From Hyphomicrobiaceae bacterium (GTDB taxonomy: Bacteria > Pseudomonadota > Alphaproteobacteria > Rhizobiales > Hyphomicrobiaceae): a stretch of DNA of 62,010 bases. The notes beneath the pieces are model-generated. The model was not told where the DNA came from, did not search any database, and saw only the letters and a program-made list of their open reading frames with translations. The stretch's first letter is position 1. Each line of letters opens with the position of its first letter. The DNA lies in the NCBI GenBank assembly GCA_031401535.1, contig JANNRP010000387.1:1-62010 (forward strand), written 5' to 3'. Both the position numbers and the translations under genes were made by a program. This document shows, in pieces, positions 3,559 through 56,909 of this stretch.

Positions 3559-4002
3559 ACTGCCAGCTCCGTCACGTCGGTCCCCGCACCATGCCTCCGG
3601 CAGAGCGTCGATGTTGTCTTGCGAACAAAGTTTTCCACAGATGTAGGCCCGTTGTCGAAGTGCAGAGAAAGCGGCCATTCGCCGTCATTCGTTATCGACG
3701 GGGTATGCAGCAGTGAGGCACGACGGCTCAACCCCGATGATCAGACGTGCGTGGATCGAATGCCGAAACACCCTATGCCCGAATCCAACTGTATCGGCGG
3801 ACCAAACGATCAGCGATTTTTGTCCCCTCTCCGGGTGCATTCAAACCGTGCTGCTTCCGCAAACCCAAAGCCCCGGGCAAGATCTACGCACGCCACTGCC
3901 AAAAACATCGCTGTGGAAGTTGATGGAGTGTCAACGGCCTCAAGGGTGCGCGCATCCTGTGACCGAGCGATGCCGTGTCCTTGGTCCGAAGTTCGGGCTT
4001 TC

Positions 4003-5031
4003 TCAGGATACTGCGAGTTCAGCCATTCCTTCCGCGAACTCGACCTCCGGCTGCCAGCCGAGTTCAGTCTTCAGGCGGCTCGAATCCGCTGTGATGTGGC
4101 GCACATCCCCGAGGCGATAGCCGCCTGTAACAATGGGTGTTGGTCCGCGGAGTGTCGTTGCGAGCGCTGCCGCCATTTCGCCAACGGTGCGGGGCGTCCC
4201 TGAACCGACATTGAACGCTCGGACACCGCGGATGTGGCGCTCGCAGGCCAGAACCGTCGCCGCCGCGATGTCGCGGACGTGGATGAAGTCCCGACGCTGA
4301 CCGCCGTCCTCAAAAACCTTCGGTGCCTCCCCGCGGCGCAGCGCCGACGTGAAGATGGCGGCAACGCCGGCGTAAGGCGTATCGCGCGGCATGCCGGGGC
4401 CGTATACATTATGGTAGCGCAAGGCCGCCACCGAGCCGCCGGTCACGCGGGCCCAGTTGCTGGCATAGTATTCCTGCGCCATCTTGCTGCTCGCGTAGGC
4501 ATTGCGCGGATCGTGCGGCGCGTCTTCTTGCACAAGCATCGGCTTCAGCGCCTGTCCGCAGATCGGGCACGGTGGTTCAAATTGACCTGATGCCAGAGCG
4601 CTTTCTGTCCGCGGGCCGGGCATGACTGCCCCATGCTCGGCGCAAAGGCCGAAGCCCTCGCCATAGACGACCATGGAACTCGCGAGTGTCAGCCGCTGAA
4701 CCTTGGCCCGCGCCATCGCGGCGAGAAGCACCGCTGTTCCCGCATCATTGGACGACGCGTAATCTGGCAAGTCATCGACATTGACGCCGAGACCGACTTT
4801 TGCCGCCAGATGCACCACGGCTTCCACATCGCACAGCGCGCGGCCGACGGCCTCGCCATCACGGACATCACCGGCTTGGAACTCGACATCTGGTGGCGGC
4901 GTCCATTGGGTCTTGGCGTGCACATCAGGCCGAAGGGAATCTAGAACGCGGACCTCGTGTCCGCGCGCCAGCAGCTGGTGCAAGACATGCTGACCGATGA
5001 AACCCGCGCCGCCCGTCAACAGGATTCTCAT
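4003..5031 (-). CDS. NAD-dependent epimerase/dehydratase (extended SDR)
   Basis: Starts MRILLTGGAGFIGQH (Rossmann GxxGxxG) and has a YASSK catalytic Tyr/Lys. Its ATG at 5031 overlaps the upstream GT2 stop (ATGA). Confidence 0.9.
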   Translation of the reverse strand: MRILLTGGAGFIGQHVLHQLLARGHEVRVLDSLRPDVHAKTQWTPPPDVEFQAGDVRDGEAVGRALCDVEAVVHLAAKVGLGVNVDDLPDYASSNDAGTAVLLAAMARAKVQRLTLASSMVVYGEGFGLCAEHGAVMPGPRTESALASGQFEPPCPICGQALKPMLVQEDAPHDPRNAYASSKMAQEYYASNWARVTGGSVAALRYHNVYGPGMPRDTPYAGVAAIFTSALRRGEAPKVFEDGGQRRDFIHVRDIAAATVLACERHIRGVRAFNVGSGTPRTVGEMAAALATTLRGPTPIVTGGYRLGDVRHITADSSRLKTELGWQPEVEFAEGMAELAVS

Positions 5032-5777
5032 GGCGTCGTCCGATCCGTGGTTATTGGGTTTGTGGGTGCTCGCAGCGTGTAGCTGAGCCGGACAAACGTC
5101 GTCGTGATTTTCCAAGCGGCTTTCAAGCCGGCAACCACGTCGCCTGAAACCTTCGATACGCCACCCCGGCGGCAGCGATGGTCGACGGGAATCTCGACAA
5201 TGCGCAATCCATTGGCGGCGGTGCGCATCTGCATTTCGAGGTTCCAGCCGAACGTCTGCTCTTTCATCCCGAGAGCGCGGAGCTGGGCAATGCGCATGGC
5301 CCTAAAGGGCGACATGTCGGTAAACCTCACGCCATAGCGCATGCGCATCAGCACGCCAGCAAGCCAGCCCGCAACGATTTGCTGGGGCGTCATGCTGCCG
5401 ACCTCGCGGGTGCCGCGCAGGCGAGAGCCCATAGTGAAATCAGCTTCGTCGCGGGCGACGGGGCCGATCACAGCCGACAAAAAGCGCGGGACATCGCTGC
5501 CATCGCCATCCAGAAAACAGACCACGTCGAAATCCGGCGGCACGGCGGCAAAGCCTGCAGCGCAGGCGCGGCCGTAGCCCGGCTGGGGTTCGCTAATGAC
5601 GTTTGCGCCAGCCACGGCTGCCACGCGTGCAGTGTCATCAGTGGAACCATTATCCACGACAATGACTAGGTCGACTCCTTCGGCCAACACTTCGCATACC
5701 ACCCCAGCAATTGGAATGGCCTCGTTGAGGCAGGGAATAACAACCGCCACACGGGAATTTATCGGACCCAACCGCAT
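5028..5777 (-). CDS. Family 2 glycosyltransferase (polyprenol-phosphate sugar synthase-like)
   Basis: VAVVIPCLNEA...VVDNGSTDDT...FLDGDGSD are GT-A fold DxD-type motifs. Confidence 0.85.
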   Translation of the reverse strand: MRLGPINSRVAVVIPCLNEAIPIAGVVCEVLAEGVDLVIVVDNGSTDDTARVAAVAGANVISEPQPGYGRACAAGFAAVPPDFDVVCFLDGDGSDVPRFLSAVIGPVARDEADFTMGSRLRGTREVGSMTPQQIVAGWLAGVLMRMRYGVRFTDMSPFRAMRIAQLRALGMKEQTFGWNLEMQMRTAANGLRIVEIPVDHRCRRGGVSKVSGDVVAGLKAAWKITTTFVRLSYTLRAPTNPITTDRTTP

Positions 5778-5800: not shown

Positions 5801-6517
5801 TCAAAGGCGGACCGCTGTGCTTGACGCGGCGCCGTGCCGCGCCAGAAACGCGCGTGTCGCGGGGGCGGGTGCACCAGGGATTTGTGAAATCGTTATCGCG
5901 GCTCCAGACAATTCATCCTCCAGCATTTTCAGCGAAGCAGCATCGTCGACATCATACCAGCCGGGCACGTTAACCACGGGAAGGCCAATCTCTCTCGCTC
6001 GGACGACGGTCAAGTCATATACTGCGTTCGTACTCCATGGAATCTCGGCAAACAGCCGCGCGTGGGGCTTGGACAAGCCAATCAGGGTGTACCCCCCATC
6101 ATACGCAGGGCTGAGCACCACACAGTCGCCAGTCCGCACCGCCGCGACTGCGTCGTGCAGAATCGACAACGGTAGCGTCGGACTGTCCGAATTGATCAGG
6201 ATCGCGCCCTCATGGCCTTTCGCCAGCAGATCGGTGATCCCCTGCAAAAGCCGCTCGCCTAATGAGCCGTCCGACTGCAAGGTCAAATCGAAGCCGTCGG
6301 GTAGCAGGGATCGCAATCGTGCCTCGGAGCCGAGCGGCGTATAGACGGCGTATCCGACCGCATCGTCCGGCGTCAGCGCGTTGATCGTCTGTGCTAAATC
6401 CGAGATGAAGCAGGCCGAGATCTCGGCACACTCTTCGGCGCGAAGTGGCGGACTCAACCGGGTCTTGGATTGCCCCGGTGCCGGTGTCTTGCACATGATC
6501 GCAACGGCGATGCTCAA
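5801..6517 (-). CDS. DUF2064 / CofC-like nucleotidyl- or glycosyl-transferase (TIGR04282-like)
   Basis: VAIMCKTPAPGQSKTRLSPPL N-terminus, INSDSPTLP and YDGGYTLIG motifs are typical of DUF2064. Confidence 0.8.
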   Translation of the reverse strand: MSIAVAIMCKTPAPGQSKTRLSPPLRAEECAEISACFISDLAQTINALTPDDAVGYAVYTPLGSEARLRSLLPDGFDLTLQSDGSLGERLLQGITDLLAKGHEGAILINSDSPTLPLSILHDAVAAVRTGDCVVLSPAYDGGYTLIGLSKPHARLFAEIPWSTNAVYDLTVVRAREIGLPVVNVPGWYDVDDAASLKMLEDELSGAAITISQIPGAPAPATRAFLARHGAASSTAVRL

Positions 6518-6729
6518 GCAGTCCTCCCCAGGTCCATTCCCTCCAGGCTACGTAGCATGCTCCCTGCGGGGGTGGTGCGTGCCCGGCAAAGGCCCTTCCA
6601 TCATTTCTCTGTGACTAGACATACTGCAAATGTGCTTTCATGGTGAGTTGTTCGGCGCGTGGCAGGCGAACGCGGTATGGCCTGAAGAATGGAGCACGGC
6701 TCGGGGAAGTCCGTGTGCGCGGGGCAAAC

Positions 6730-8103
6730 ATGTTGGACAGAATGCGTGAGATCGCACGGGGATTGGGTCCTTTACACGCTCGGTGTCGAGCAAAGCAGCC
6801 GCAAGTGACGCTAGCCTTGGTGGCCTTGCTGCTTGTGCTCGCCGCTGCGGTTGCTCCAGCACTGCATAGGTCTGTCGGGGGCATGGCCTGGCTGGGGTTG
6901 ATCTTCGTCTGGGCCGGCCTCGCGTACGTGGCCGTCCGCATCGCGGCAACGATCCCAGCACGTGCAGCGCTGGCGATCGTGCTCGGTGGGGCAGCGCTGA
7001 TGCGCTTGCCCCTGCTGATCGAACCGCCCTATTTGTCATCCGACATGTACCGCTATGTCTGGGATGGTCGCGTTCAGGGCAACGGCATCAATCCCTATTT
7101 GCATGTGCCAGCGGCACCTGCGCTCGCACATCTGCGCGACACCGCTATTTATCCAAATATCAATCGCGCCGATTATGCGCCAACGATCTATCCGCCGGCA
7201 GCGCAGATGCTGTTCTGGTTGATCACGCGTTTTGGCGACAGCGTGCTCGCCATGAAGCTCGGCTTTCTCGCCTTTGAAGCTCTCGCGATGGCGGCGCTCA
7301 TCGGCATCCTCCGCCAGCTGTCCTTGCCGCCAACACACGTGGTCGCTTTTGCGTGGCATCCACTGACTGTATGGGAAATCGCGGGCAATGCCCACGTCGA
7401 TGCGGTCCTGGTCAGTCTGATGTTGGTCAGCCTGCTTGTCGCGCTGCGCGATCAGACCTTGGCGGCCGGAGCAATCGCGAGCGTCGCGGTGTTTCTCAAA
7501 CCAACAGCCTTGCTGTTGATGCCGGTGTTGTGGCGGCCCTGGAACTGGAAATTGCCGCTCCTGCTCGTCGTGATCGGTGGCGCGCTGTACGCGCCATATC
7601 TTGGCGCGGGCCAAAAGGTTTTCGGGTTTCTGAGTGGCTACGTCGCCGAGGAGGAACTGGGCTCCGGCGGTGGTTTTCGCTATTTGAAGCTTTTGGAAAG
7701 TGTCACGGGAACGATCCCGCATGGTGGAACGCTTTATCTCGTTGCGGCCGCGTTGATCCTTGCAGGGCTCGCGCTGCGCATCGGTTTCCGTGCTGACCGA
7801 TCCCCCGCCGCGACAGTCCGGGTGACCGCGCTGCTGCTCATCGCGTTTCTCGTTCTGCTGACACCGCACTATCCCTGGTATTATCTCGCCATCGCGCCGT
7901 TGCTCGCGTTGCAGCCGCGTATGCTGACACCATGGGTTCTCGTGACCGGTGGCTTTCTTCTCTATGATGTGATCGCGGGTGACCGCATGGCACCGTTTGC
8001 AGTGCGCGATGGGGCCTTACACCTGACCGCATCGGCAGCGCTGACTTATGATTATTGGAATGCACGAAGGCTTGAGCGTGCGCCATCGAAGGCCAATTCA
8101 TGA
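6730..8103 (+). CDS. Polytopic membrane glycosyltransferase-like protein (DUF2029 / GT87-like)
   Basis: Many TM helices. A conserved periplasmic-loop motif SSDMYRYVWDGRVQGNGINPY is present. The start is uncertain (ORF opens at 6640; ATG at 6730 preferred). Confidence 0.7.
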   Translation: MLDRMREIARGLGPLHARCRAKQPQVTLALVALLLVLAAAVAPALHRSVGGMAWLGLIFVWAGLAYVAVRIAATIPARAALAIVLGGAALMRLPLLIEPPYLSSDMYRYVWDGRVQGNGINPYLHVPAAPALAHLRDTAIYPNINRADYAPTIYPPAAQMLFWLITRFGDSVLAMKLGFLAFEALAMAALIGILRQLSLPPTHVVAFAWHPLTVWEIAGNAHVDAVLVSLMLVSLLVALRDQTLAAGAIASVAVFLKPTALLLMPVLWRPWNWKLPLLLVVIGGALYAPYLGAGQKVFGFLSGYVAEEELGSGGGFRYLKLLESVTGTIPHGGTLYLVAAALILAGLALRIGFRADRSPAATVRVTALLLIAFLVLLTPHYPWYYLAIAPLLALQPRMLTPWVLVTGGFLLYDVIAGDRMAPFAVRDGALHLTASAALTYDYWNARRLERAPSKANS

Positions 8104-8997: not shown

Positions 8998-9546
8998 TCA
9001 ATTCGCACGTTCAAGCCGGATGTCGACTTCGCGCTCGACATATGTCCATTGTGGTGACGCCCGAAGATGCGCGAGAAGTTCGTCAAAAAATCCGGAGTGC
9101 TCGGGCGCGTATTCGAACCACGTCAAGAAATCGAACGGCTCGCCAAGATCGCGACTGTGATACAGCTGGCGCGCGACGGCGGGGAGATATTCCAGGCCCG
9201 TTTGCGTATGGTGCGATTGCTCCTCGAGGATCGCGCGGCACTGGTCCTGCGCAAGTTTCCACCATGCCGCGCTTTTCTTGATCGGAATGAGGGCCGCCCG
9301 CTGGGCCTGCGCCCGCCCGAGCGCCTCCTGCCGTGACCGAAGTTTCGTCACTTCGCCGCGCGTCGCGTAGCGCAGAATGCTGGTCACGCCCTGCAAGACC
9401 CAGGCGGCCAGTGATCGCACCGCCGCGCCCGCTGGAAGAATTTCTAGGCCCGCAGCCGCCACCAGGGCTTGGCCACTAAGGGCCTGTGCCGACAGAATGC
9501 GCCATGTGCCCGTCTGAGCGGCAACAAATACATACCGATGATGCAT
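8998..9546 (-). CDS. cld: Chlorite dismutase family protein, short lineage-II (Nitrobacter-type) form
   Basis: AALIPIKKSAAWW...SHH...LPAVARQLYHSRDLGEPFDFLTWFEYAPEH...WTYVEREVDIRL. This closely resembles the dimeric Cld of Nitrobacter as I recall it, and the proximal His and distal Arg appear retained. Confidence 0.8.
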   Translation of the reverse strand: MHHRYVFVAAQTGTWRILSAQALSGQALVAAAGLEILPAGAAVRSLAAWVLQGVTSILRYATRGEVTKLRSRQEALGRAQAQRAALIPIKKSAAWWKLAQDQCRAILEEQSHHTQTGLEYLPAVARQLYHSRDLGEPFDFLTWFEYAPEHSGFFDELLAHLRASPQWTYVEREVDIRLERAN

Positions 9547-9628
9547 ATGGTTACTCCCGCAGCCTGTGGAACCCATTTGAGCGCACGCGCTGCAAATTTC
9601 GCGCCGACAGGCCGCAGAAGTGCCGACT

Positions 9629-10288
9629 TCAGGACAACCGTCGATACCAACCGGCGATCAACCCATTGCCCTTGAACGGACCCCAGGGCCGCCGCGTCAG
9701 CAGAGCGTCAAGACCAAGGCTCTTGCCGGCGCTGTTGATCAGGAAAAAGCCCTGCACGAAGACGAGGAAGATGTAGAGCCACGGCCACTCGCCTGGATGC
9801 CTGTAGAGTCCAAGCCAGAGGTGCAGCGTAAACAACATGCCGACGGCTGCCATCGGCCGGACGCAGAAGCCGAGGATGAAGGCGATGGCGAGTGACAGCT
9901 CGGTCAGATAGACGATCGGGTTGATGACCGCGAGGGCGGGAATGTAGATGTTGGTTGCGATCCAACTATGGGCGCTGAAGGCTGCGTGCTCGGCCAATTG
10001 GCGCGTCCAGCCGTCAAGACCGCCCGAGATCGGCAGCGGCAATTTCCAAAGCGATCCCTGGAACCACATCGAACCGATGCCGAGGCGCATGATCCAGGTG
10101 CCGACGTGTTCGGACGTGCGTTGCGACGGATCTTCAGACCAGTTCTTCCAGGCGATGTAGGCGCTGCCAAACAGCAGAGCCAGAAAGCCAAGCGTCAGCA
10201 CCCATGCGAAAAACGGGCCGGCATTGTTGTGATCGCCGGTCTTGCCGAGCAGAAACAGCCACGTGTCATAGAACGGATTGGTTTTCAT
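9629..10288 (-). CDS. DoxX/DoxD-like membrane protein
   Basis: 219 aa with 4-5 TM helices and a DoxX-like pattern. Its start overlaps the end of the SelD-fusion ORF by 23 nt. Confidence 0.6.
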   Translation of the reverse strand: MKTNPFYDTWLFLLGKTGDHNNAGPFFAWVLTLGFLALLFGSAYIAWKNWSEDPSQRTSEHVGTWIMRLGIGSMWFQGSLWKLPLPISGGLDGWTRQLAEHAAFSAHSWIATNIYIPALAVINPIVYLTELSLAIAFILGFCVRPMAAVGMLFTLHLWLGLYRHPGEWPWLYIFLVFVQGFFLINSAGKSLGLDALLTRRPWGPFKGNGLIAGWYRRLS

Positions 10289-12647
10289 GCGAGTTCTCCC
10301 CCAAGCCGCGGTGCGGCTGTTGCATGGTCTGGTTGGCTGCGAGGCGGCGTGACGTGTGGTCCGTTGAGGGCGGCGCGGGTGCCGTCAGATCAATGGTGAT
10401 GGCCTCAAGAGCGTCGGACCGTGGCTGCACGGTGCCGATGATGGCAGTTGCCAGATAGCCCGCAGCGCGCAGAGCTGCGACGCATGCCTGAGCACGCATG
10501 GCTGGTACGGACGCAAGCAAGCCGCCTGCGGTTTGCGGATCGAACAAGGCGGCATAGAGCGGGTGCCTGCCTGCTTCATCGATGTTGCTGATGGCACGGC
10601 GCAGGCGAACATTCTGTGGCTGCAATGATGAGAAGATACCCATGGCCAGGGTTTCGGGGACGCCATCGAGCAGCGGCACGGACTGGAGTTGCAATGTGGC
10701 GTCCACGTTCGATGCGCGCACCATTTCCACGAGATGTCCGAGCAAACCAAAGCCGGTGACATCCGTCGATGCCGTTGCGCCGTGCGCTGTCAGAATACCC
10801 GCGCCGATGCGGTTCGACGTCGTCATGTGCGCAATCGCACCCATCACCCAGCGGGCCTTGGCTTTGCCGCGCATGTCGGCGGCCAGCAGCGTGCCAGTGC
10901 CGAGCGGCTTGGTCAGGATCAGAACCTGGCCGGGTACGAGCCCACCCTTACGCAAGACTGTTTCGCGCGCGATCAATCCGTTGACGGCAAAGCCGAGAGA
11001 TAGTTCCGCGCCTTCGCTGGTGTGGCCGCCGACCAGCGCACAGCCGGCCTCGTGCAACATCTCGTTGGCGCCGGACATCATGGCGGTCAGATCGGCCTCC
11101 ACCTTGGCCTCGATCCCATACGGCACGGTGGCAATGGCGAGCGCGGTCTGCGGCTCGGCGCCCATGGCGAAAATATCGCCGAGTGCGTGGTTCACGGCAA
11201 TTTTGCCGAACAGATAAGGGTCGTCGATGATGGCGCGGAAGTAGTCGACGGAATGCACGGCAAGTTTCGGTCCACCGACATCAACCACGGCCGCATCATC
11301 GGGTGCGTCCAGACCGAGCACGACGTCGTCGCGTGGGAAGGGCTCGATGGAGCCGAGTGCGCGGCTTAAAACCGTTGCGCCGACCTTGGCGCCGCAGCCA
11401 CCACAGCGCATGGCCATGGTGGAGATTTCCTTCATTGCGGCGGCATCGGCGACGTGAACATGAGGACCAGCAGCTGCCGTCGCCATCTCCGGCAGGGCAT
11501 TGAACTTCTGCAAGAAACGGCGGTCGATCCAGTCCTTTAAGCGCCATACCCAGGCCCCCGAAAATGTGATGCCGTTGCGTGTGCCGATGGCGTTTTCGTC
11601 GCCGGTCGAGATTAGGTACAGGGCATTCTTCTGCGGCCGGTGCAGGCGCAGCGGTTCGCTTCTGAGCAGATGCCGGATGTTGGTCGCGAGCGTTGGGCCG
11701 CTGCGCACGGCATAGACGCCGGACTTTGGCAGACTGTAACCATCGAGTGAGGCCACGTCGCCGGCCGCGAACACGTTCGGATGCGACACGCTTTGCAGCG
11801 TGCGGCCGACACGGATGAAACCGGTGTCGTCCAGGGCCAGTCCTGTTTCGCGCAGCCAAGGCGCGGCCTCAGCGCGTGTGGTCCAGAAAATCTCGTGGAG
11901 CGCAACACGCTCGGCCCCGTTCAGAATAGCAATCCCGGCTTCGACGGCAGTGACTTTGCTGTTGACATGGATGGTGATGTTGCGGTTAAGCAAGACCTCG
12001 GTAAAGCGCTGCCGCGTGCAGGCAGGCAACGCGGGCAAAACCTCGGCCGACGGCGTGACAATGACAAATGACAATCCGCTGGTATCTTGACCCGCGGCGC
12101 GCACGTCGCGGACAAGCCGATGCTGCAGCGCCAGTAGCAATTCGACCCCGCCCGGGCCTGCCCCGATCACACCGATCCGTGCCTTGCCTTTGGCTGCCAG
12201 CACGCGCGTGCGCGCCGCTTCGAACCGCGCCAGAAAGCCGTCCACGGGCTTGACCGGAACGGCGTGCTCCGCAACGCCCGGGACCTGCTGCATGCCCGGC
12301 GTCGCGCCGATGTTGATTGAAAGGACATCGAACGGTACCGGCGGCCGGTTGTCGCACAGGACGCGCCGACCAGTGAGGTCGAGGCCGGTGGCCGTGCTTT
12401 GATAGAGGCGCGCGTTGGCAAAGCGTGTCAGCGGACCCGTATCGATGTGGGCGTCATCGGCGCTGTAGTGACCGGCGATCATGCCCGGCAGCATACCGGA
12501 ATAGGGCGTGTGCACCTCTCTTGTGATCAGCGTCAACCGGACGCCCGGCTCAGGGTTCATGCCGAACATGCGCAGCACGCTGACGTGGGCATGACCGGCA
12601 CCGATCAGAACCACGTCTTTCACAATTGGAATGTCTGGCGACTTCAT
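10266..12647 (-). CDS. selD: Bifunctional FAD/NAD(P)-dependent pyridine nucleotide-disulfide oxidoreductase / selenide, water dikinase (SelD)
   Basis: The N-terminal ~390 aa carry two Rossmann motifs (VVLIGAGHAH, VIGAGPGGVE). The C-terminal part is full SelD with a Cys/Lys loop RCGGCGAKV and AIR-synthase-like domains. The ATG overlaps the permease stop. Confidence 0.9.
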   Translation of the reverse strand: MKSPDIPIVKDVVLIGAGHAHVSVLRMFGMNPEPGVRLTLITREVHTPYSGMLPGMIAGHYSADDAHIDTGPLTRFANARLYQSTATGLDLTGRRVLCDNRPPVPFDVLSINIGATPGMQQVPGVAEHAVPVKPVDGFLARFEAARTRVLAAKGKARIGVIGAGPGGVELLLALQHRLVRDVRAAGQDTSGLSFVIVTPSAEVLPALPACTRQRFTEVLLNRNITIHVNSKVTAVEAGIAILNGAERVALHEIFWTTRAEAAPWLRETGLALDDTGFIRVGRTLQSVSHPNVFAAGDVASLDGYSLPKSGVYAVRSGPTLATNIRHLLRSEPLRLHRPQKNALYLISTGDENAIGTRNGITFSGAWVWRLKDWIDRRFLQKFNALPEMATAAAGPHVHVADAAAMKEISTMAMRCGGCGAKVGATVLSRALGSIEPFPRDDVVLGLDAPDDAAVVDVGGPKLAVHSVDYFRAIIDDPYLFGKIAVNHALGDIFAMGAEPQTALAIATVPYGIEAKVEADLTAMMSGANEMLHEAGCALVGGHTSEGAELSLGFAVNGLIARETVLRKGGLVPGQVLILTKPLGTGTLLAADMRGKAKARWVMGAIAHMTTSNRIGAGILTAHGATASTDVTGFGLLGHLVEMVRASNVDATLQLQSVPLLDGVPETLAMGIFSSLQPQNVRLRRAISNIDEAGRHPLYAALFDPQTAGGLLASVPAMRAQACVAALRAAGYLATAIIGTVQPRSDALEAITIDLTAPAPPSTDHTSRRLAANQTMQQPHRGLGENSHENQSVL

Positions 12648-14179
12648 CTTGGAATACCTGCCGGCCTGAGTGTTTGTGCGCCAGCGGCTTCGGCAAGTCG
12701 CGTCGGCAGAGTCGATATTTTGAGAGACGCACGAACGAAACGCGACACAGCATCAATGATTGCGGATAGCACGACCGTGGCTGCAATGAGCACGACGGCC
12801 ACATCGTAGCGCAATTCCGAGATGGCCCCATCGATATGAAACCCAAGTGTACCGACGCCAAGTACACCAAAGATCGCACTCTCGCGCACGATGATTTCCC
12901 AGCGATAGAGCAGGTATGCCAGGAACTGCCCGTACATGCGTGGAACCACTTCGAAGGCATAAAGGTTGATGCCCGCAGGCGCATCACGGCGTTGTTCCAA
13001 CTGGTCGGCATGACGGCCCATGAGATAGCCGATGATGCCACCGTTGTGCACGGCGAGCGCGATGATGGCTGGCAACATTGACGGCCCAAGCACCTGCAGC
13101 AGCACGTAGGCCAGCATGTATTCCGGCGTCGAGCGTATAATGACCAGCATAACGCGCCCAGCCGTCTGACCGCCGAGCCCAAGGAACGTGCGCGAAATCG
13201 CTGGGAAAACCACGAGCGCCATGATGCCAGCCGCGACCAGCGCGATCTGCGACAGCACCAGTGTCTGCCACGTGCCGGGCAGGATTTTGGTCGTCAGGAT
13301 CAGCCAAAACCATTTGCCAAGGGCCGCCCAAGTCGCGAGGTCGAGCAAAGCACCGTTGCGCAGTGGAAACGGCACGATGTCGTGGCCAACGAAGCGGATG
13401 AGGTTTGTGAGTGCCGACCCGCCGCCAATCGTTTCGGGCAGGAGCAACAGACTCGCGACCAGCAGCAGTGGAACAGTCGCCGGGCGTGCCCAGATGCGGC
13501 GCGTGCCGATCAGAAGATAAAAGACGCCGAGCAAAGCGGCTGCCTGTGCATAACGACCCTGTTTGAAATAGCTCTCAAGGTGAAAGCCGATCGTCGGCAG
13601 GCCGATGAAGCCGAGGATGAGTGTCGAGCGCATCCCGCATTCGAGGCGATAGAGCGTGTAGGTCTTGAAGCGTTCCAGGACTTCGGGCAGGCGCGCGAAC
13701 GCGAAGGCTGACACGGCGGACGTGCCAAACGGCAGTACACGTTCGGCGGCGAGATCCGCTTCTTCGAGCATCTCGGCGTAGACCTTGGCGAAGATGCCGG
13801 CATAGGGGACGGCAATCGCGAGCACGCCGGTCACCGGCCCGAGACCGAACACCTGGATCAGCAGCAAAGCCCAGAACAGTTCGTGGATTGAGCGGATGAC
13901 AACTGAAAACCGGCGCACGGCGGCACTGCGCGGGTAGAGGATCGCCAGACCAAAACCAGCGGCAGATCCAAGACCGACGCCGACCACGGCGAAGGCAACG
14001 GTCCAGATGACACTCCAAAGTTCAATCGCTCTGATGTCCGGCGTCAAAATTCCCCAGCTGAGGCGTTTGAGATCTGCCCATGGATTAAGAGCGGTGACAG
14101 CGATATCAGCCACCAGCAGGCAGACGATGGCGGCGGCCAGTAACAGCGCGCTGACGCTCGCATACGTGAGGCGCATCAT
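12644..14179 (-). CDS. ABC transporter permease, fused double PhnE-type
   Basis: 511 aa, two tandem PhnE-like six-helix modules. It has ATGA-type overlaps with both neighbours. Confidence 0.8.
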   Translation of the reverse strand: MMRLTYASVSALLLAAAIVCLLVADIAVTALNPWADLKRLSWGILTPDIRAIELWSVIWTVAFAVVGVGLGSAAGFGLAILYPRSAAVRRFSVVIRSIHELFWALLLIQVFGLGPVTGVLAIAVPYAGIFAKVYAEMLEEADLAAERVLPFGTSAVSAFAFARLPEVLERFKTYTLYRLECGMRSTLILGFIGLPTIGFHLESYFKQGRYAQAAALLGVFYLLIGTRRIWARPATVPLLLVASLLLLPETIGGGSALTNLIRFVGHDIVPFPLRNGALLDLATWAALGKWFWLILTTKILPGTWQTLVLSQIALVAAGIMALVVFPAISRTFLGLGGQTAGRVMLVIIRSTPEYMLAYVLLQVLGPSMLPAIIALAVHNGGIIGYLMGRHADQLEQRRDAPAGINLYAFEVVPRMYGQFLAYLLYRWEIIVRESAIFGVLGVGTLGFHIDGAISELRYDVAVVLIAATVVLSAIIDAVSRFVRASLKISTLPTRLAEAAGAQTLRPAGIPR

Positions 14180-14868
14180 GGAACGGCACCGCCGAAGTGC
14201 CCGATCAGGTCGCGCGCATTCAAGGCTGAGCTGCGCTCGTCGATGATCTTGCGGCCAGCCTCAAGAACGATAATGCGGTCCGCATGCTCAAAGGCAAGAC
14301 CGACGTCGTGCAAGGCCAAGACCAGCGTGCCAAAACGGAGGCGCAACAGGCGTAATATGTCGCCGCCTTGGACACTGTCGAGTGCCGAAACCGGCTCATC
14401 GCCGATTAAAATCGGCCGACCGTTGTAAAGCGCACGCGCCACCGAGACACGCTGTTGCTGTCCGCCGGAGAGAGCGCCCGCCTGCTCGCGCAGTTTCTCG
14501 GCCAAACCAACGTCGGTGAGGACGGACGACACCTGCGCCAGCTCATCGTCGCGCGGCCACACGAGATTGCGCAGATTATAGGCCGTTGAATGGCGATCCA
14601 GACGCCCCATGTAAACGTTATGAAACACGGACAGCGGTTTCACCAATGCTGCGGCTTGCGGCACGAGGGCAACGTGCCTCGGCACCTGATCATAGAGGAG
14701 GCCAAGCAACGTCGATTTGCCTGCACCGCTGCGGCCCATGATAGCCACGCACTCGCCAGCCTCAACCGACACCGATACATCATGCAGTACCGGCCGGCCT
14801 TGATAGCCGGCCGATGCATTCTCAACCGCGAGGGCTATGTCCCCGACCATACGCGCGCCCCCGCCCAA
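14176..14868 (-). CDS. ABC transporter ATP-binding protein (PhnC-like)
   Basis: Walker A GRSGAGKST, signature LSGGQQQR, Walker B ILIGDEP. Confidence 0.9.
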   Translation of the reverse strand: MGGGARMVGDIALAVENASAGYQGRPVLHDVSVSVEAGECVAIMGRSGAGKSTLLGLLYDQVPRHVALVPQAAALVKPLSVFHNVYMGRLDRHSTAYNLRNLVWPRDDELAQVSSVLTDVGLAEKLREQAGALSGGQQQRVSVARALYNGRPILIGDEPVSALDSVQGGDILRLLRLRFGTLVLALHDVGLAFEHADRIIVLEAGRKIIDERSSALNARDLIGHFGGAVP

Positions 14869-14890
14869 TGCTGCTCCGCAAAGCGGGAGC

Positions 14891-15763
14891 TCAGTTGATT
14901 AGCCCGATGGATTTGCCGACATCCTCGATGGCCTTGTAGTCGCTGTTCTTGGCGGGGATAAACTTGGAGCGGTCGAAGATTGCCAGCATCTTGGGATCAT
15001 CAATGCCGAGGATCACAGCTTGCAATTTGTCCTTGAAGCCAGCACCGAAGGTCTTGTCGAGATCACCACGCGCCACCCAATGATAGTCGGGGAAATCCGG
15101 CGTCTCCCAGATCGGGTGCACCATCTTTGTATCGACCTTGCCGGCCTTCACTTCCTGGTCCCACACGACGTAACTCAACACGCCGACCTGATAGGCACCG
15201 GACTGGACGAGTTGGATCGTTTTGCTGTGGTCACCCGAATACCCAACGCGCGAGAAGAAGGCTTCAGGTCCTTTACCCGTGGCTTGCCGGAGGAAGTGTT
15301 CTGGGAAAAGGCGGCCGGACGTCGAGGAGCGCGAGCCGAACGTGAAGGTCTTGCCTTCCATGGCTTTGGGGAAGTCTTTGCTCGGCATAATGCCAGCCGA
15401 CACATTGGCGATGAAGTAACTCTTGAAGGCGGGATCTTCGGCGCCTTGGGCAATGGCGTCGGAACCCGGAACTGACAAGCGCGCCTGCACGCCGGTCAGG
15501 CCGCCGAACCAGGCAAATTGCACTTGGTTGTTGGTGAACGCCGTCACGGCAGCTGGATAGCTCTTCACCGGCAGATATTTGACGGAGACACCGAGCTTGG
15601 CCTCGAAGTATTTGGCATAGATCGAGAACCGCTCCACCAGGCGGGTTTCATCCTCGTCGGGGATGGCCGTAAAAACGAGGGTCTGCGTCTGGGCATGCGC
15701 CAGACCGAGAGGTGTGGCAGCGGCCAGCGCCGCCAAAGAAGCTGTTACAGTGCGTCTATTCAT
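14891..15763 (-). CDS. PhnD-type periplasmic binding protein (phosphonate/phosphite/putative selenate class)
   Basis: Signal peptide MNRRTVTASLAALAAATPLGLAHA. PhnD-like motifs FTAIPDED, FAWFGG, GSRSSTSG. Confidence 0.8.
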   Translation of the reverse strand: MNRRTVTASLAALAAATPLGLAHAQTQTLVFTAIPDEDETRLVERFSIYAKYFEAKLGVSVKYLPVKSYPAAVTAFTNNQVQFAWFGGLTGVQARLSVPGSDAIAQGAEDPAFKSYFIANVSAGIMPSKDFPKAMEGKTFTFGSRSSTSGRLFPEHFLRQATGKGPEAFFSRVGYSGDHSKTIQLVQSGAYQVGVLSYVVWDQEVKAGKVDTKMVHPIWETPDFPDYHWVARGDLDKTFGAGFKDKLQAVILGIDDPKMLAIFDRSKFIPAKNSDYKAIEDVGKSIGLIN

Positions 15764-15894
15764 GTGAGTCCCCAAAGGTAGATCATAACGCGACACACTT
15801 GCCATAGCAGCAGATCAGTCCAGGACACTTCTCACGATTGGCCCGATGTCTATCACAGTTCAGTCAGGAAGCGCCGGGACCGCCGGTCCCAATG

Positions 15895-16779
15895 CTAATC
15901 GACACGCACTGTGCCGACGAACGCAATGCCCTCAAAGCCGACAGCACCGGTTCCCTGTTTCTCCTCAACTGCGGCCACGAAGCGGTCGATCACCGAGGTG
16001 GCGCGATCTCCGACCGCGTCGATTTGCGCCGCCATCCCCGGCGCAAACCGGAGCCGCTCGCCGAGCCACCGTGCTGAGGGAGCCCGCAGCGTCGCACGGT
16101 GCGGCTCGATCTCAACGGTGCTGAACCCGGCCGCGCGGAATAGGGCCTCGAAATCCGCGCGTTCGCGATAGCGCAATTGCGCCGGTAAGGTTGAAGCAGC
16201 GGCGCTCGGTTGGACGGCTTGGATTGCGGCCCTGAGCTGCGCGGCAAGCTCGTAGTGCTGCGGCTCGGTCCATGTGACAACGGCAACCCGTCCCCCGGGG
16301 CGCACTACGCGCCGCATTTCCGCAAGACCCCGCACAGCATCGGGAAACAGTATGACGCCGAAGATCGACACTGCCGCGTCGAATGTGGCCGCCGGATAAT
16401 CGAGCGCTTGCCCGTCCATCACGCTTGCCGTGATCGGCAAAGACTCGGCTTCTGCACGCATCGCGATGCGCGCGACCATGGCACCTGAGGCATCAATGGC
16501 CGAGACTTTGCAGCCGCGTCTGGCCAGTTCCAGAGCCGCGCCGCCACTGCCTGCGCCGACATCAAGGACTCGCAGGCCCGGTGTGATGGTCATGGCTGCA
16601 ATAACGTTGTTGGCAAAGGCAAGACTGAATGGCTCGAACACGGTTTCATACACCGAAACGTGATCGTTCCAGGCCTCGGGACGCTGATCGGGTTGGGCAG
16701 CTAGCGGTATCATTGGCGCGTGTCCGTCATTATAAGTCGTCTGGTCACTACCTGACCACCCCACCACAGCATCGTCCAA
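15895..16779 (-). CDS. Class I SAM-dependent methyltransferase
   Basis: Motif I VLDVGAGSGGAALELA, followed by an acidic residue after beta-2 (SAIDAS). The start is uncertain (16779 or 16713). Confidence 0.8.
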   Translation of the reverse strand: MDDAVVGWSGSDQTTYNDGHAPMIPLAAQPDQRPEAWNDHVSVYETVFEPFSLAFANNVIAAMTITPGLRVLDVGAGSGGAALELARRGCKVSAIDASGAMVARIAMRAEAESLPITASVMDGQALDYPAATFDAAVSIFGVILFPDAVRGLAEMRRVVRPGGRVAVVTWTEPQHYELAAQLRAAIQAVQPSAAASTLPAQLRYRERADFEALFRAAGFSTVEIEPHRATLRAPSARWLGERLRFAPGMAAQIDAVGDRATSVIDRFVAAVEEKQGTGAVGFEGIAFVGTVRVD

Positions 16780-16802: not shown

Positions 16803-17852
16803 ATGAGCCTATTCGCCGTGCAGGCGCAGCCGACCGAGCAACCGGCGCCGACGCAGTTCGCCATCGGCCTCGGTTTGACCAACGAATGCAATCTCAGCTG
16901 CGCGTTCTGCTACCGCGATCCGGATCGCGTCGATCGGCTGTCCATCGAGCAAGTTCGCTCAGTGATGCAGCGGATGCCGGTACGCTCGGTGAACCTGGGC
17001 ACGGGCGAAAATGGTCTGCATCCGGAATTCAAGGCTATGATCGACTATCTCAAGTCGCAACCGATCAAGTTGACCATGACGTCCAATGGCTATTCGGTCG
17101 CCGCTGTCAGTGACGCCGACCTTGCATTCTTCAAAGACATCGAACTTTCCCTCGACTATCCGACCAAGGCCGAACAGGACCAGCAGCGCGGGGATGGCAA
17201 TTGGGATTTGCTGCACGAACAGGCCGCCCGTTGCCAGCGACTTGGTGTGCCCGTGACCTTCATCGCAGTCATGATGCAGACCAATTTTGATCGGCTGGCC
17301 GAGATCGCGACCATTGCCAAGCAGTACGACGCGCCTCTCCGCATCAACGTCTATCAGGCTGTCCGCACCGACAAGTTCGCATTAACCTATGACCAATACT
17401 GGAACGCCTTCGAGGCTTTGTTCGCCAGGACCGACGTGATCGCCGTCGGTGAGCCCCTGGTGCGCGCCATGGCCGGAATGCCGCCACGCACGGGCGGATG
17501 CGGTGTCGCGACAGTCCGTGTAACGCCGCGTGCCACCGTCCAGCCCTGCGTCTACTGGCCAGGCAAAGGCGAGCCGCTTGATGTGCTTCTAGATGTCGGC
17601 CCGGACGTGGTCGGCAGCGCGCCCTTCATTGCCGCACGATCAGTGCCGAGCGCCTGTGAAACCTGTGCGCACGTCGCCGCCTGCCGCGGTGGCTGCGCCG
17701 GCCGGCGGCGGTTGATGGGCGCCCTGGACAAACCCGATCCCTATTGCCCGATCGTGCGCGGCGACACACGCAAGCTCGCGGTCCAAATGGCGCCTGCGCG
17801 CGAAATGCCGAAGTTGGAAAGCGCCTGCACAACGATCGTGATGGCGCGGTGA
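16803..17852 (+). CDS. Radical SAM enzyme with C-terminal SPASM/twitch-like Cys cluster
   Basis: CNLSCAFCY (CxxxCxxC) near the N-terminus. The C-terminal segment CETCAHVAACRGGCAGRR...YCP is typical of SPASM domains. Confidence 0.8.
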   Translation: MSLFAVQAQPTEQPAPTQFAIGLGLTNECNLSCAFCYRDPDRVDRLSIEQVRSVMQRMPVRSVNLGTGENGLHPEFKAMIDYLKSQPIKLTMTSNGYSVAAVSDADLAFFKDIELSLDYPTKAEQDQQRGDGNWDLLHEQAARCQRLGVPVTFIAVMMQTNFDRLAEIATIAKQYDAPLRINVYQAVRTDKFALTYDQYWNAFEALFARTDVIAVGEPLVRAMAGMPPRTGGCGVATVRVTPRATVQPCVYWPGKGEPLDVLLDVGPDVVGSAPFIAARSVPSACETCAHVAACRGGCAGRRRLMGALDKPDPYCPIVRGDTRKLAVQMAPAREMPKLESACTTIVMAR

Positions 17853-17870: not shown

Positions 17871-18683
17871 TCACGCCAGTGCTGGAGAGACCTGATAGTC
17901 CTCAGTGTGCACCAATACAGAGTGCGGCGTGACAAAGATGATGCCGTAGGCGGCGGGCTCCTCGACTGACAGCGAGGCGTCCTCGCTATCAAAGGTCATC
18001 GGCTGCTGATGGACTGGACTCTTATAGACCGAGAATGGGATGCCCTGGATCGAACCACTGATAGTCCGATGGATATGGCCTGCCACGATGTGGCGAACGT
18101 TGCCGCGCCGCAGGACGATGTCGAAGAACGCGGCCTCATCCTTCAACCGGATGGTACCCATGCCGCGAAAGCCGACCGCATGCGGGGGATGATGCATGAA
18201 GATGATCGCCTGCCGCCGCGCCGGCAGATCGAGCGCGGCATCGAGCCACGCCAGCCGATGACGGCACAGCGCACTGTGGTGGATCTCGCCGTGGTCGTAG
18301 GGTGGGCCGTGAAGCGTATCGAGATAGATCAGCCGCAGCGGGCCATGATCGAGGCAGCGTTGAACAAAACCATTCGCGTCCGTCGGTGTCTCGGGAAAGG
18401 CGGCCCGGAAGGCGTCGCGGCGATCGTGATTGCCGAGCAAAAACGAGATCGGAATGGTCACGCCGACCAAGCGCGTTCGCAGCTGGTCATAGGCTGCGCG
18501 GTCGCCGTGGTGCGTCAGGTCTCCGGTGATGATCAGGTGGTCGGCGTCGGCATGGCGGTGGCGGATGTGCACGAGCGCTGCGGCAAGACGTTCCTGAGGA
18601 TCCAGGCCAAGGATGGTCTCACCGGCCGGTGTCACGTGGAGGTCCGTGAGGATGATCAACTTGAGACGCTCTGTGCCGGGCAT
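17871..18683 (-). CDS. Metallophosphoesterase, GpdQ/CpdA-like phosphodiesterase
   Basis: Motifs DLH, GDLTHHG, GNHD, MHHPP, GHIH in canonical order. The ATG at 18683 is preceded by GAGGA. Confidence 0.85.
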   Translation of the reverse strand: MPGTERLKLIILTDLHVTPAGETILGLDPQERLAAALVHIRHRHADADHLIITGDLTHHGDRAAYDQLRTRLVGVTIPISFLLGNHDRRDAFRAAFPETPTDANGFVQRCLDHGPLRLIYLDTLHGPPYDHGEIHHSALCRHRLAWLDAALDLPARRQAIIFMHHPPHAVGFRGMGTIRLKDEAAFFDIVLRRGNVRHIVAGHIHRTISGSIQGIPFSVYKSPVHQQPMTFDSEDASLSVEEPAAYGIIFVTPHSVLVHTEDYQVSPALA

Positions 18684-18748
18684 GGTATCCTCGCTTTTCT
18701 GGAAACAGGTCGAGACGCGACGCGCATGAAACACAGGACCGTGGATCG

Positions 18749-19465: not shown

Positions 19466-20260
19466 ATGACCAAAACACCTCCGATCCTCAAGAACAAGCA
19501 CTACGATGAGGCCTCGACGTTCGTGCCTGAGAACCTCCTTCGCGAGGCGCGCCGCCAGAAGGGATTGACAACGACAGCGGTGCCGAAGGTCTGCGTCCTT
19601 GATCCGGATGGCGACATCATCCGGCATATGCAGAGAGCCGGGCGCGTCACACGGGATCCGGATTGGGCATGCTACCATACCGAGTTGTATCGCATGACCC
19701 ACGACGGCATTCGGCTCGGCATTGTGCCGTGCGCCGTCGGGGCCTCGTTCGCCGTTCTGGTTGCCGAGCAACTGCTTGCCTCGGGCTGCCAGTTGCTCGT
19801 CAGCGTGACATCGTCGGGTCAGCTCATCGCGTTGCGACCGCCGCCTTACTTTATTCTGATCGAACGATCCCTGCGAGACGAGGGTACAAGCTATCACTAT
19901 CTCCCACCCTCCGAATACAGCTCTGCCGATCCAAAACTCATCGCTGTCTTGGCGAACGCATTTGCCGGCTTGAGCGTTGTCGTGGAGCGCGGCGACACTT
20001 GGACGACCGACGCGCCGTTCCGCGAGACCGCAGCCGCAATTGCCGCCATGAAGGCAAAAGGGCTGCTCGCGGTCGAGATGGAGGCTGCCGCCCTTTATGC
20101 CTTCGCGGCCGCACGCAAAAAGCCCGTTATCTGCTTCGCGCACGTCACCAACCAGATGGCGCGGATTGAAGGTGACTTCGAGAAAGGTGAGGCCGACGGT
20201 TCGATTGATGCTCTATCGGTTGTGACGGCGGCGGCGAAAGCGTGGGTGAATTTACACTGA
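19466..20260 (+). CDS. Nucleoside phosphorylase (PNP/UDP family 1)
   Basis: Phosphorylase-family core with VEMEAAALY near the C-terminus. Length and layout match family-1 nucleoside phosphorylases. Confidence 0.7.
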   Translation: MTKTPPILKNKHYDEASTFVPENLLREARRQKGLTTTAVPKVCVLDPDGDIIRHMQRAGRVTRDPDWACYHTELYRMTHDGIRLGIVPCAVGASFAVLVAEQLLASGCQLLVSVTSSGQLIALRPPPYFILIERSLRDEGTSYHYLPPSEYSSADPKLIAVLANAFAGLSVVVERGDTWTTDAPFRETAAAIAAMKAKGLLAVEMEAAALYAFAAARKKPVICFAHVTNQMARIEGDFEKGEADGSIDALSVVTAAAKAWVNLH

Positions 20261-24670: not shown

Positions 24671-24755
24671 TGGTGGACAGGGCTGGATTCGAACCAGCGT
24701 AGGCGAAGCCAGCGGATTTACAGTCCGCCCCCTTTAGCCACTCGGGCACCTGTCC
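24671..24755 (-). tRNA. tRNA-Tyr (GUA)
   Basis: The reverse complement is GGACAGGTGCCCGAGTGGCTAAAGGGGGCGGACTGTAAATCCGC...GGTTCGAATCCAGCCCTGTCCACCA. It is 85 nt, with a long variable arm, anticodon loop CTGTAAA and encoded CCA. Confidence 0.95.
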
Positions 24756-55191: not shown

Positions 55192-55210
55192 GGGCTGATC
55201 TCCGGGTCTC

Positions 55211-56903: not shown

Positions 56904-56909
56904 CTGACC

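Follow-up and report, generated by a model that had tools for sequence, protein, structure and literature searches.

The prokaryotic fates of selenophosphate set out in reviews of 2022 and 2026 and in the selenoneine and ovoselenol papers are selenocysteine (Sec), selenouridine, a molybdenum-hydroxylase cofactor, selenoneine and ovoselenol only. The selenoneine (sen) cluster encodes SenC, the selenosugar synthase SenB (TIGR04348) and the EgtB-like SenA, and a 'putative selenate transporter' has been noted beside many sen clusters (Kayrouz et al. 2022; bioRxiv 10.1101/2022.04.13.486033). Two further systems serve as reference points: the picocyanobacterial PhnD1-C1-E1 transporter, whose genes are described beside tesA and which is read as a phosphate/phosphite system, and the NCBIfam arsenosugar set (ArsM, ArsS TIGR04167, TIGR04282 and TIGR04283). 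Here we analyze a 62,010-nt stretch of contig JANNRP010000387.1 from a Hyphomicrobiaceae bacterium (assembly GCA_031401535.1; ~61% GC, 63 called open reading frames, ORFs), hereafter the window. In it, a 6.2-kb operon for a transporter of the ATP-binding cassette (ABC) type, a flavoprotein::SelD fusion and a DoxX-like membrane protein lies among radical S-adenosylmethionine (SAM), methyltransferase and glycosyltransferase genes.

The cassette of transporter and fusion is already known, as are the fusion itself and the family of the binding protein, all of them being curated, since the fused SelD is mostly SenC, often with the same transporter. What we did not find described, in curated libraries, the 2022 and 2026 reviews, the selenoneine and ovoselenol papers or the term-searched literature, is the embedding of this cassette in a radical-SAM/methyltransferase/DoxX-like/glycosyltransferase cluster that lacks SenA and SenB and that occurs with two unrelated SelD types. 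Judging from sequence and gene order, we propose that the operon imports and activates selenium and that the surrounding cluster, termed the host cluster below, would use the selenophosphate to make a methylated organoselenium sugar or envelope glycoconjugate. We give this reading a probability of about one half.

An overlapping operon with a flavoprotein–SelD fusion

Six minus-strand ORFs, from the binding protein to a chlorite dismutase (Cld)-like protein, are present at the coordinates listed in Table 1. Codon-position GC (GC3 0.67–0.79, GC2 0.44–0.49) fits the pattern of real genes in all six. The ATPase stop overlaps the permease start in an ATGA at 14179–14176, the permease stop overlaps the fusion start in the same way at 12647–12644, and the fusion stop, TGA 10268–10266, lies 23 nt inside the DoxX-like ORF, which starts at 10288. 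Direct reading of the sequence bears out the ORF coordinates, both ATGA junctions, the overlap of 23 nt and the motif of SelD reported in the initial annotation, which had described import, flavoprotein and SelD as hard-wired together; they do form one overlapping operon, and the arrangement is conserved in many genomes. Related loci, designated here by L numbers, include 80 genomic loci whose fusion is 53–73% identical to that of the window, from a scan at one genome per species. A 20–23-nt overlap between the SelD end and the DoxX-like gene recurs in L082, L169 and L170. The exact fusion protein was matched elsewhere only once, in an 11.4-kb Logan contig. Homologs of the fusion number more than 8,000 and are named SelD by their sources. 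Taken as a predicted selenium acquisition and activation cassette, the 6.2-kb operon is strongly supported by its gene content and junctions.

The C-terminal domain of the fusion scores 296.7 bits against TIGR00476 (cut-off 125), with AIRS and AIRS_C matches of 74.6 and 56.3 bits. Its nearest solved structure is E. coli SelD (3u0o; 165 bits over residues 414–742). The motif RCGGCGAKV occupies residues 414–422, and by the offset of the 3u0o alignment Cys17 and Lys20 of E. coli SelD have their counterparts in C418 and K421. C415, C418 and K421 are invariant among 17 homologs. These matches strongly support the prediction that the domain turns selenide and ATP into selenophosphate.

The N-terminal domain scores 449.8 bits against TIGR03169 (cut-off 310), a model described as 'N-terminal to SelD', and contains two dinucleotide-binding folds (Pfam Pyr_redox_2 over residues 10–317, Pyr_redox over 157–237). 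Membership of TIGR04369, the 'not SelD' model of oxidoreductase/SelD-related fusions, was rejected at 443.1 bits against a cut-off of 700. The nearest solved structures are the type II NADH dehydrogenase (NDH-2) YjlD (9pxk, 69 bits), another NDH-2 (4nwz) and FSP1. C98 is the sole invariant cysteine and there is no CxxxxC pair. Since the redox-active cysteine pair is absent and the domain is NDH-2-like, it resembles an NAD(P)H/quinone flavoenzyme of the NDH-2 type more than a disulfide reductase of the classical kind. A two-Rossmann pyridine nucleotide-disulfide oxidoreductase fused to a complete Cys-type SelD had been predicted; the fusion, the folds and the motif stand, while the disulfide-reductase type does not. 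In L085 and L171, SelD is present without a flavoprotein domain and, as gene content suggests, works without one.

Scans for promoters and terminators of the window gave results close to shuffle expectation, the single promoter-like site being at 16758–16729, upstream of the likely methyltransferase start. Alignment of the methyltransferase/radical-SAM intergenic region across 17 loci revealed no conserved motif, and an RNA-element search of the window returned a tRNA-Tyr only.

Binding protein and transporter

The binding protein scores 355.3 bits against TIGR04553, well above the cut-off of 250. The permease matches PhnE in two stretches, as expected of a double permease (192 bits, cut-off 217), and the ATPase matches PhnC (144 bits, cut-off 266). 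The predicted succession of a PhnD-type binding protein, a PhnC-like ATPase and a double-PhnE permease agrees with both positions and family matches, the PhnC and PhnE scores lying below their cut-offs. TIGR04553, 'putative selenate ABC transporter substrate-binding protein', is a 'hypothetical equivalog' model based on genomic context, as the initial annotation had noted of such labels.

The closest solved relatives are PhnD1 of Synechococcus MITS9220 (7S6G; 246 bits, 47.5% identity) and PhnD1 of Prochlorococcus MIT9301 (5LQ5; 214 bits, 41.6% identity). When their sequences, rebuilt from printed alignments, were scored against TIGR04553, they reached 337 and 301 bits, respectively (cut-off 250). 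By NCBI's criterion, the crystallized PhnD1 proteins are therefore members of the 'putative selenate' family. The residues named for the PhnD1 pocket (PMC10284923) lie in motifs, IPD, GGLTG, SSTSG, SGxH and DY-HW, that are kept in the binding proteins of the window and of sen clusters. PhnD1 binds phosphite most tightly, with a Kd in the micromolar to sub-micromolar range, and phosphate and methylphosphonate more weakly, with a Kd of tens of micromolar; the pocket requires three trigonally arranged oxygens beneath a capping tyrosine (PMC10284923, PMC5700983). The strains that carry PhnD1 are unable to use phosphite for growth, and phosphate starvation does not induce phnD1 (PMC10284923). The phosphite affinity has been termed fortuitous by the authors and is described as puzzling, and selenium is unmentioned in the main texts of these papers (PMC10284923, PMC5700983). 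Selenium ligands appear not to have been considered there.

Selenite is a trigonal three-oxygen anion similar in size to phosphite. Given a small, tyrosine-capped, phosphite-preferring pocket built for three trigonal oxygens, selenite is by analogy a plausible and likelier ligand of the TIGR04553 binding protein than selenate. Specificity for phosphite or phosphonate had been named as evidence that would tell against a selenium role. This came out half true: the crystallized family members do prefer phosphite, and their preference points to selenite over selenate.

Could the transporter be a phosphite or phosphate importer with no specific selenium role, its linkage to selD being historical? 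The family membership of the two PhnD1 proteins, their ligand preference and the conserved pocket motifs would all fit such a function. However, no phosphite dehydrogenase or C-P lyase was found among the scanned ORFs of the window, and the picocyanobacteria with PhnD1 show the growth and induction behavior just described. The transporter genes of the window, unlike those of the PhnD1-C1-E1 system, are translationally coupled to selD by overlapping start and stop codons. They also accompany selD in ~25–39 of the 80 loci, in sen-type and radical-SAM-type contexts and with fused and unfused SelD alike. We therefore consider a pure phosphorus importer very unlikely.

Relationship to selenoneine clusters

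The 80 fusion loci come from Alpha-, Beta- and Gammaproteobacteria, Binatia, Vicinamibacterales and Bradymonadaceae. Neighbors were found by clustering the flanking ORFs and scanning representatives, and were then counted by tblastn within 10 kb. The commonest meet the models for SenB (TIGR04348, 400 versus a cut-off of 300), SenA (NF041186, 514 versus 420) and EgtD (TIGR03438, 368 versus 291), and they lie within 10 kb of the fusion in 50, 28 and 16 of the 80 loci, respectively. A homolog of the binding protein is found near the fusion in 39 of the 80, and in ~25 of these it is at least 50% identical to that of the window. For the most part, the fused SelD family thus represents SenC from selenoneine clusters, and the import and activation cassette is a known unit.

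The window shares with sen clusters this SelD family, the same TIGR04553/PhnC-like/double-PhnE transporter and the logic of a dedicated selenium import and activation unit inside a biosynthetic cluster. It differs in that SenB, SenA and EgtD are absent from it and from its syntenic relatives, the cassette lying instead within the host cluster. In a neighbor-joining tree of SelD domains, the window fusion belongs to a clade that is sister to, and partly interleaved with, the sen-linked SelDs. The loci with the cassette in the host cluster form one alphaproteobacterial clade, in which a sen-type sub-clade (L004, L005, L007 and L040) is nested.

Eight of the 80 loci (L071, 17944–20100, and seven others) encode a protein of ~718 residues in the vicinity of sen clusters. 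By eye it appears to combine a VTT/DedA-type membrane domain with a pyridine nucleotide-disulfide oxidoreductase in one fusion. DedA proteins have been linked to selenite uptake.

Gene order in related loci

Five loci, L002, L003, L006, L008 and L009, from metagenome-assembled genomes (MAGs) of Hyphomicrobiaceae, Devosia, Hyphomicrobium and Xanthobacteraceae, share one gene order. A divergent radical-SAM gene is followed by methyltransferase, binding protein, ATPase, permease, fusion and DoxX-like genes; the order continues with a family 2 glycosyltransferase (GT2), a second radical-SAM gene of the SPASM type, a GT87/MptA_B-like glycosyltransferase of the GT-C fold and a DUF2064 gene, and a gene for a nucleoside phosphorylase of the purine nucleoside phosphorylase (PNP) type is often near. 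The window has the same genes rearranged, without the second radical-SAM gene. L082, a 467-kb Hyphomicrobiaceae contig, holds the full set, with the GT2, GT-C and DUF2064 genes (the glyco-module) rearranged and upstream, and L169 also holds the full set, its flavoprotein and SelD being called as separate genes. L170 retains the radical-SAM gene, methyltransferase, a degraded transporter, the fusion and the DoxX-like gene; the glyco-module is not nearby, and it is absent from L171 too. A metagenome scan seeded with the DoxX-like protein recovered the full radical-SAM/methyltransferase/cassette order in ~10 of the longer contigs. The neighboring methyltransferase and radical-SAM genes had been singled out as candidate selenophosphate consumers in the initial annotation; they are conserved with the operon across relatives, the opposite of the lack of conservation it had named as counter-evidence.

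All cluster-bearing genomic loci found are MAGs. In a search for a cultured carrier among plasmids, no match to the radical-SAM protein was obtained, and matches to the fusion were at most 44% identical. Downstream of the DoxX-like gene of L082 (13236–21028) stands a run of genes of sulfur/selenium-trafficking type, encoding EamA, a 459-aa Pyr_redox_2 protein, a methyltransferase, an Aminotran_5 protein of the cysteine desulfurase/Sec-lyase type, DsrE, a VTT+rhodanese protein and an ArsR-rhodanese regulator.

Two loci carry a different SelD in the module. In L171 (4080–9899), the transporter genes are 69–75% identical to those of the window and in the same order, and an unfused SelD, only 35% identical to the window SelD domain, fills the slot of the fusion; by sequence, it looks like a non-orthologous displacement in place. 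In L085, the order is radical-SAM gene, methyltransferase, DoxX-like, PNP-type, binding protein, ATPase and permease, joined to another unfused SelD. In the neighbor-joining tree, both of these SelDs fall far outside the fused clade, as outgroups. That two unrelated SelD types occur in the same module indicates that a SelD of either kind is kept in the operon and argues for functional coupling. Conversely, the cassette is absent from L116, L125 and L167, where the methyltransferase and DoxX-like genes are directly adjacent. The four cassette genes thus behave as an insertion, which assigns the DoxX-like gene to the host cluster.

Genes of the host cluster

The radical-SAM/SPASM enzyme, rSAM1, is the most conserved gene of the cluster and adjoins the methyltransferase in every context examined. 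It meets no NCBIfam model, the best being a mycofactocin maturase (85 versus 265 bits). It carries a CxxxCxxC motif and seven further invariant cysteines, including CX2CX5CX3C, the full SPASM cysteine set. More than 7,400 homologs were found, the top 120 all being at least 74% identical. The AlphaFold2 model is poor, with a mean predicted local distance difference test (pLDDT) of 54. The methyltransferase, of class I, likewise meets no NCBIfam cut-off; its orthologs have 269–272 residues.

Among the glyco-module genes, the GT-C transferase has orthologs in the syntenic clusters L002, L003, L006, L008, L009, L082, L166 and L167. The DUF2064 and GT2 proteins are also conserved in syntenic clusters; for the DUF2064 protein, the nearest solved structure is 3cgx, and its L002 ortholog is borderline against TIGR04282 at 133.8 bits. 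The DUF2064 gene was rejected as a SenB, since SenB is TIGR04348 with a GT-B fold, which leaves the window without a SenB. The best NCBIfam matches of the GT2 protein, AglJ (110 bits) and PpgS (54 bits), are both under their cut-offs. The PNP_UDP_1-family protein has its nearest solved structures in a PNP and a methylthioadenosine phosphorylase, at 32–35 bits, and orthologs of 58–65% identity in L002, L003, L006, L008, L085, L112 and L137. The sugar epimerase/dehydratase beside the GT2 gene occurs in L001, and none was found in the 80 related loci at the thresholds used.

Table 1. Features of the selenium operon and its neighborhood in the window
Feature	Coordinates	Strand	Remarks
Binding protein, TIGR04553 family	14891..15805	-	Likely start M15, then RR-containing signal peptide
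PhnC-like ABC transporter ATPase	14176..14868	-	Pfam ABC_tran; stop overlaps permease start
Fused double PhnE-type permease, 511 aa	12644..14179	-	PhnE match in two stretches
NDH-2-like flavoprotein (residues ~10–385)::Cys-type SelD (~411–750), 793 aa	10266..12647	-	TIGR03169 + TIGR00476
DoxX-like polytopic membrane protein, 219 aa	9629..10288	-	Sub-threshold Pfam DoxX
Clade-2 (short, Nitrobacter-type) chlorite dismutase homolog	8998..9576	-	3qpi, 5k8z matches
Class I SAM methyltransferase, first operon gene	15895..16779	-	Likely start ATG 16713, giving 272 aa; Pfam Methyltransf_25/11, Ubie_methyltran, TehB
Radical-SAM/SPASM enzyme rSAM1, divergent from operon	16803..17852	+	Pfam Radical_SAM; most conserved cluster gene
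GT-C fold membrane glycosyltransferase (GT87/MptA_B-like), glyco-module	6640..8103	+	Pfam GT87 26.5 vs 25; precomputed match MptA_B_family
DUF2064/TIGR04282 protein of nucleotide-diphospho-sugar-transferase fold, glyco-module	5801..6517	-	TIGR04282 152.6 vs 134; Pfam DUF2064 87.5
GT2 glycosyltransferase resembling polyprenyl-phosphate sugar synthases, glyco-module	5028..5777	-	Pfam Glycos_transf_2
NAD-dependent sugar epimerase/dehydratase beside GT2	4003..5115	-	Pfam Epimerase, GDP_Man_Dehyd; cluster membership uncertain
PNP_UDP_1-family nucleoside phosphorylase/nucleosidase, recurrent neighbor	19466..20260	+	Pfam PNP_UDP_1 86.6 bits

The gene types of the host cluster, a methyltransferase, a radical-SAM enzyme, a DUF2064 protein and a GT2 round a metalloid-handling step, mirror the arsenosugar set named by NCBI. 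The window DUF2064 protein passes TIGR04282, 'arsenosugar biosynthesis glycosyltransferase'. ArsS is reported to adenosylate arsenic (Cheng et al. 2021, cited after PMC12159101), and a PNP-type nucleosidase would fit the removal of adenine after such a step. ArsS/ArsM orthology of the radical-SAM and GT2 genes was nevertheless rejected on scores: rSAM1, of the SPASM type, reaches 30.3 bits against the ArsS model (cut-off 300), and the GT2 protein 36.6 against TIGR04283 (cut-off 182). In addition, SelD and a selenium-linked importer replace the ars genes, and the cluster adds a GT-C membrane transferase and a DoxX-like protein.

This resemblance raises the question of whether the locus detoxifies selenium, tellurium or arsenic. 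The TehB/UbiE-like methyltransferase, which matches Pfam TehB at 28.6 bits (gathering threshold 20.4), would then methylate reduced selenium for volatilization or export, and the radical-SAM enzyme would add a further modification, as in arsenic methylation and arsenosugars. We regard this as unlikely. The methyltransferase shares its transcript with a high-affinity-type importer and with a SelD that consumes ATP, which points to acquisition, not removal, the ArsS and TIGR04283 scores fall far short, and no ars or resistance genes were found among the scanned ORFs of the window.

DoxX-like and Cld-like proteins

The gene overlapping the SelD end by 23 nt had been annotated as DoxX-like. The overlap is confirmed, and the identity is supported at sub-threshold level: nothing was matched at default thresholds, and relaxed searches gave Pfam DoxX at 20.1 bits (gathering threshold 23.6) and DoxD at 15.9. 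Across three family members, the DoxX scores are 20.1, 19.8 and 18.6 bits. An AlphaFold model built with 20 sequences has a pLDDT of 84, and its best fold match in the PDB is NACHO/TMEM35A (probability 0.92, template modeling score 0.67 on the target, E-value 1.5), which we take to be classed in the DoxX family. With this predicted fold, 'DoxX-like' is a reasonable label for a putative assignment.

DoxX and DoxD are subunits of the thiosulfate:quinone oxidoreductase of Acidianus, and DoxX, SseA and SodA of M. tuberculosis form a thiol-homeostasis complex. The window protein resembles the DoxX/DoxD families (PF07681, PF04173) as a small polytopic membrane protein with reproducible sub-threshold matches, encoded beside a chalcogen-handling flavoprotein. 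It differs in scoring below the Pfam gathering threshold, in having no conserved cysteine and in having no partner sulfurtransferase encoded nearby. It has 1,266 homologs. In the metagenome scan seeded with this protein, 29 of 80 metagenomic loci have SelD immediately upstream of the DoxX-like gene. The family is also found in unrelated contexts, and its exclusivity to selenium loci was rejected.

The Cld-like ORF that follows on the same strand is a clear, full-length homolog of clade-2 chlorite dismutases by sequence. It matches 3qpi at 211 bits over residues 16–191 and 5k8z at 198 bits, with Pfam Chlor_dismutase at 31.8 (threshold 25). An SHH...ARQLYH segment is conserved, and the regions of the haem-ligand His and the distal Arg align to the clade-2 dimeric Cld. 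The initial annotation had placed such a gene here, and it is real; it is not conserved with the operon, being present in the near-identical contig L001 and in none of the 80 related loci. The Cld-like gene and a patatin gene, which is likewise found in 0 of 80, were both rejected as cluster members.

Candidate consumers of selenophosphate

The initial annotation had stated that the window encodes no known consumer of selenophosphate, and for these 62 kb the statement holds. Of the 63 called ORFs, 62 were scanned against NCBIfam, as was the ORF at 5028–5777, and no SelA, SelB, SelU, SenA, SenB, YqeB or YqeC was found. ARAGORN and Rfam searches of the 62 kb found no tRNA-Sec, the tRNA-Tyr being the only hit. 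SenA, SenB and EgtD sequences from several related loci gave only tblastn matches with E > 0.05 to the window. Nor were SenA or SenB found within 10 kb in the inserted-cassette loci examined (L002, L003, L006, L008, L009, L082 and L169–L171).

Several observations weigh against the host cluster as the consumer, or against a selenium role more broadly. The host cluster occurs without a selD within 10 kb in L166, L167, L125 and L116, so its chemistry is not obviously dependent on an adjacent SelD. In L167, the seven-gene host cluster stands alone. In L166 (9090–13809), on a 2.7-Mb contig with planctomycete-like gene content, a methyltransferase faces rSAM, GT2, DUF2064 and GT-C genes with no selD or DoxX-like gene nearby; the radical-SAM protein is 79% identical to that of the window, a very high conservation across apparently different phyla. 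L085, L004 and L040 carry parts of the module beside complete SenA/SenB, and the module could serve selenoneine metabolism as an accessory instead of being a consumer in its own right. No cluster protein resembles any known selenophosphate-using enzyme. The likeness to the arsenosugar set is one of cluster composition only, because rSAM1 and the GT2 protein score below the ArsS and TIGR04283 cut-offs. The measured ligands found for TIGR04553-scoring proteins are phosphite, phosphate and methylphosphonate only, and relatives of the DoxX-like gene also adjoin genes for a P-type ATPase, a major facilitator superfamily transporter, a Na/H exchanger and DUF1326. Lastly, the window covers 62 kb of the genome, and SelU, SelA or SenA/SenB may sit elsewhere in it.

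The host cluster without selD, the module parts beside SenA/SenB and the 62-kb extent of the window lend weight to a different account, in which the cassette feeds a canonical consumer elsewhere in the genome, SenA/SenB (selenoneine), SelU (2-selenouridine) or the Sec machinery, and the radical-SAM, methyltransferase and DoxX-like genes are accessory, modifying or moving the same selenium pool, for instance by Se-methylation, or form an unrelated envelope-glycan cluster that served by chance as the insertion site. The membership of the fused SelD in the SenC family in 50 of 80 loci, and the nesting of a sen-type sub-clade within the SelD clade of the window, fit this account as well. The absence of SenA, SenB, EgtD, SelU, SelA, SelB and tRNA-Sec from the 62 kb and the lack of SenA/SenB near the inserted cassettes speak against it, and the non-orthologous replacement of SelD in the same slot of L171 would be hard to explain if the position were incidental. 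We consider a canonical consumer elsewhere possible but doubtful.

Genomic surroundings

The selenium/glycosyltransferase region (~4–20 kb) is flanked by mobile-element genes, with an IS21 IstB helper fragment (165–695) on one side and an IS1182-type transposase, a large serine recombinase and the tRNA-Tyr (20493–21566, 22791–24473 and 24671–24755) on the other. Its GC content is not distinctive. We regard the region as a possible genomic island.

A minus-strand gene (17871–18734) separates the radical-SAM gene from a haloacid dehalogenase (HAD)-phosphatase/nucleoside-phosphorylase pair. It encodes a rhizobial SpdA-type 2',3'-cyclic nucleotide phosphodiesterase, which scores 387.9 against a cut-off of 400 and, along with the loci that match best, suggests an origin in Hyphomicrobiales. 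Another minus-strand gene (2152–3678) encodes a 508-aa protein with a full-length DUF6880 match (477 bits) and was not found in related loci. A NirA-family sulfite/nitrite reductase, the sirohaem synthase CysG and a 2Fe-2S ferredoxin are encoded together on the minus strand at 53491–57341, 40 kb from the operon. NirA-type reductases could also reduce selenite.

Discussion

We propose the following route for the locus. The TIGR04553-type binding protein and the PhnC/PhnE-type ABC transporter would import a small selenium oxyanion. The NDH-2-like domain would draw on NAD(P)H or on the quinone pool and pass reduced selenium on to the active-site cysteine of SelD, with selenite, Se(0) or a selenotrisulfide as candidate substrates, and the DoxX-like protein may anchor the flavoprotein to the membrane or link it to quinone. 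With moderate confidence, the cassette appears to have been inserted between the methyltransferase and DoxX-like genes of a widespread host cluster. We infer, also with moderate confidence, that this cluster rather than SenA/SenB is the local consumer of selenophosphate.

The first Se–C bond could be made in two ways. It may arise through the radical-SAM enzyme and the methyltransferase, which make up the cluster's invariant core, and the PNP-type enzyme might then remove a nucleobase. HpnH/HpnG provide a precedent for nucleobase removal, alongside ArsS. Alternatively, the DUF2064 protein may act on a nucleoside diphosphate (NDP)-sugar, with SenB-like chemistry in a different fold. The GT2 and GT-C proteins resemble systems in which a sugar is attached to polyprenyl phosphate and then passed on at the outer side of the membrane. 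Such GT2/GT-C pairing is known from the ArnC/ArnT and PpgS systems; the scores of the pair here lie below the family cut-offs.

A bolder version, which we put forward tentatively and consider less likely than not, is that the radical-SAM/SPASM enzyme, the methyltransferase, the DoxX-like protein and the DUF2064/GT2/GT-C proteins constitute a third dedicated pathway for a selenium-containing small molecule or envelope glycoconjugate, after selenoneine and ovoselenol. Its consumer would be unrelated to SelA, SelU and SenB, its likely product would be a methylated selenosugar that polyprenyl phosphate brings to the cell surface, and the TIGR04553/PhnD1 proteins would be selenite receptors.

If selenoneine or selenouridine genes lie elsewhere in the genome, the finding shrinks to an unusual placement of a known cassette. 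If PhnD1-type proteins are physiological selenite receptors, this would explain why marine picocyanobacteria retain a phosphite-preferring PhnD1 that they cannot use for phosphorus. The finding would also offer a handle on the ligand question of a structurally characterized transporter family. The cluster family is abundant in metagenomes and, with a selenium cassette wired into genes without an assigned function, offers a concrete candidate, open to testing, for an additional fate of selenophosphate.

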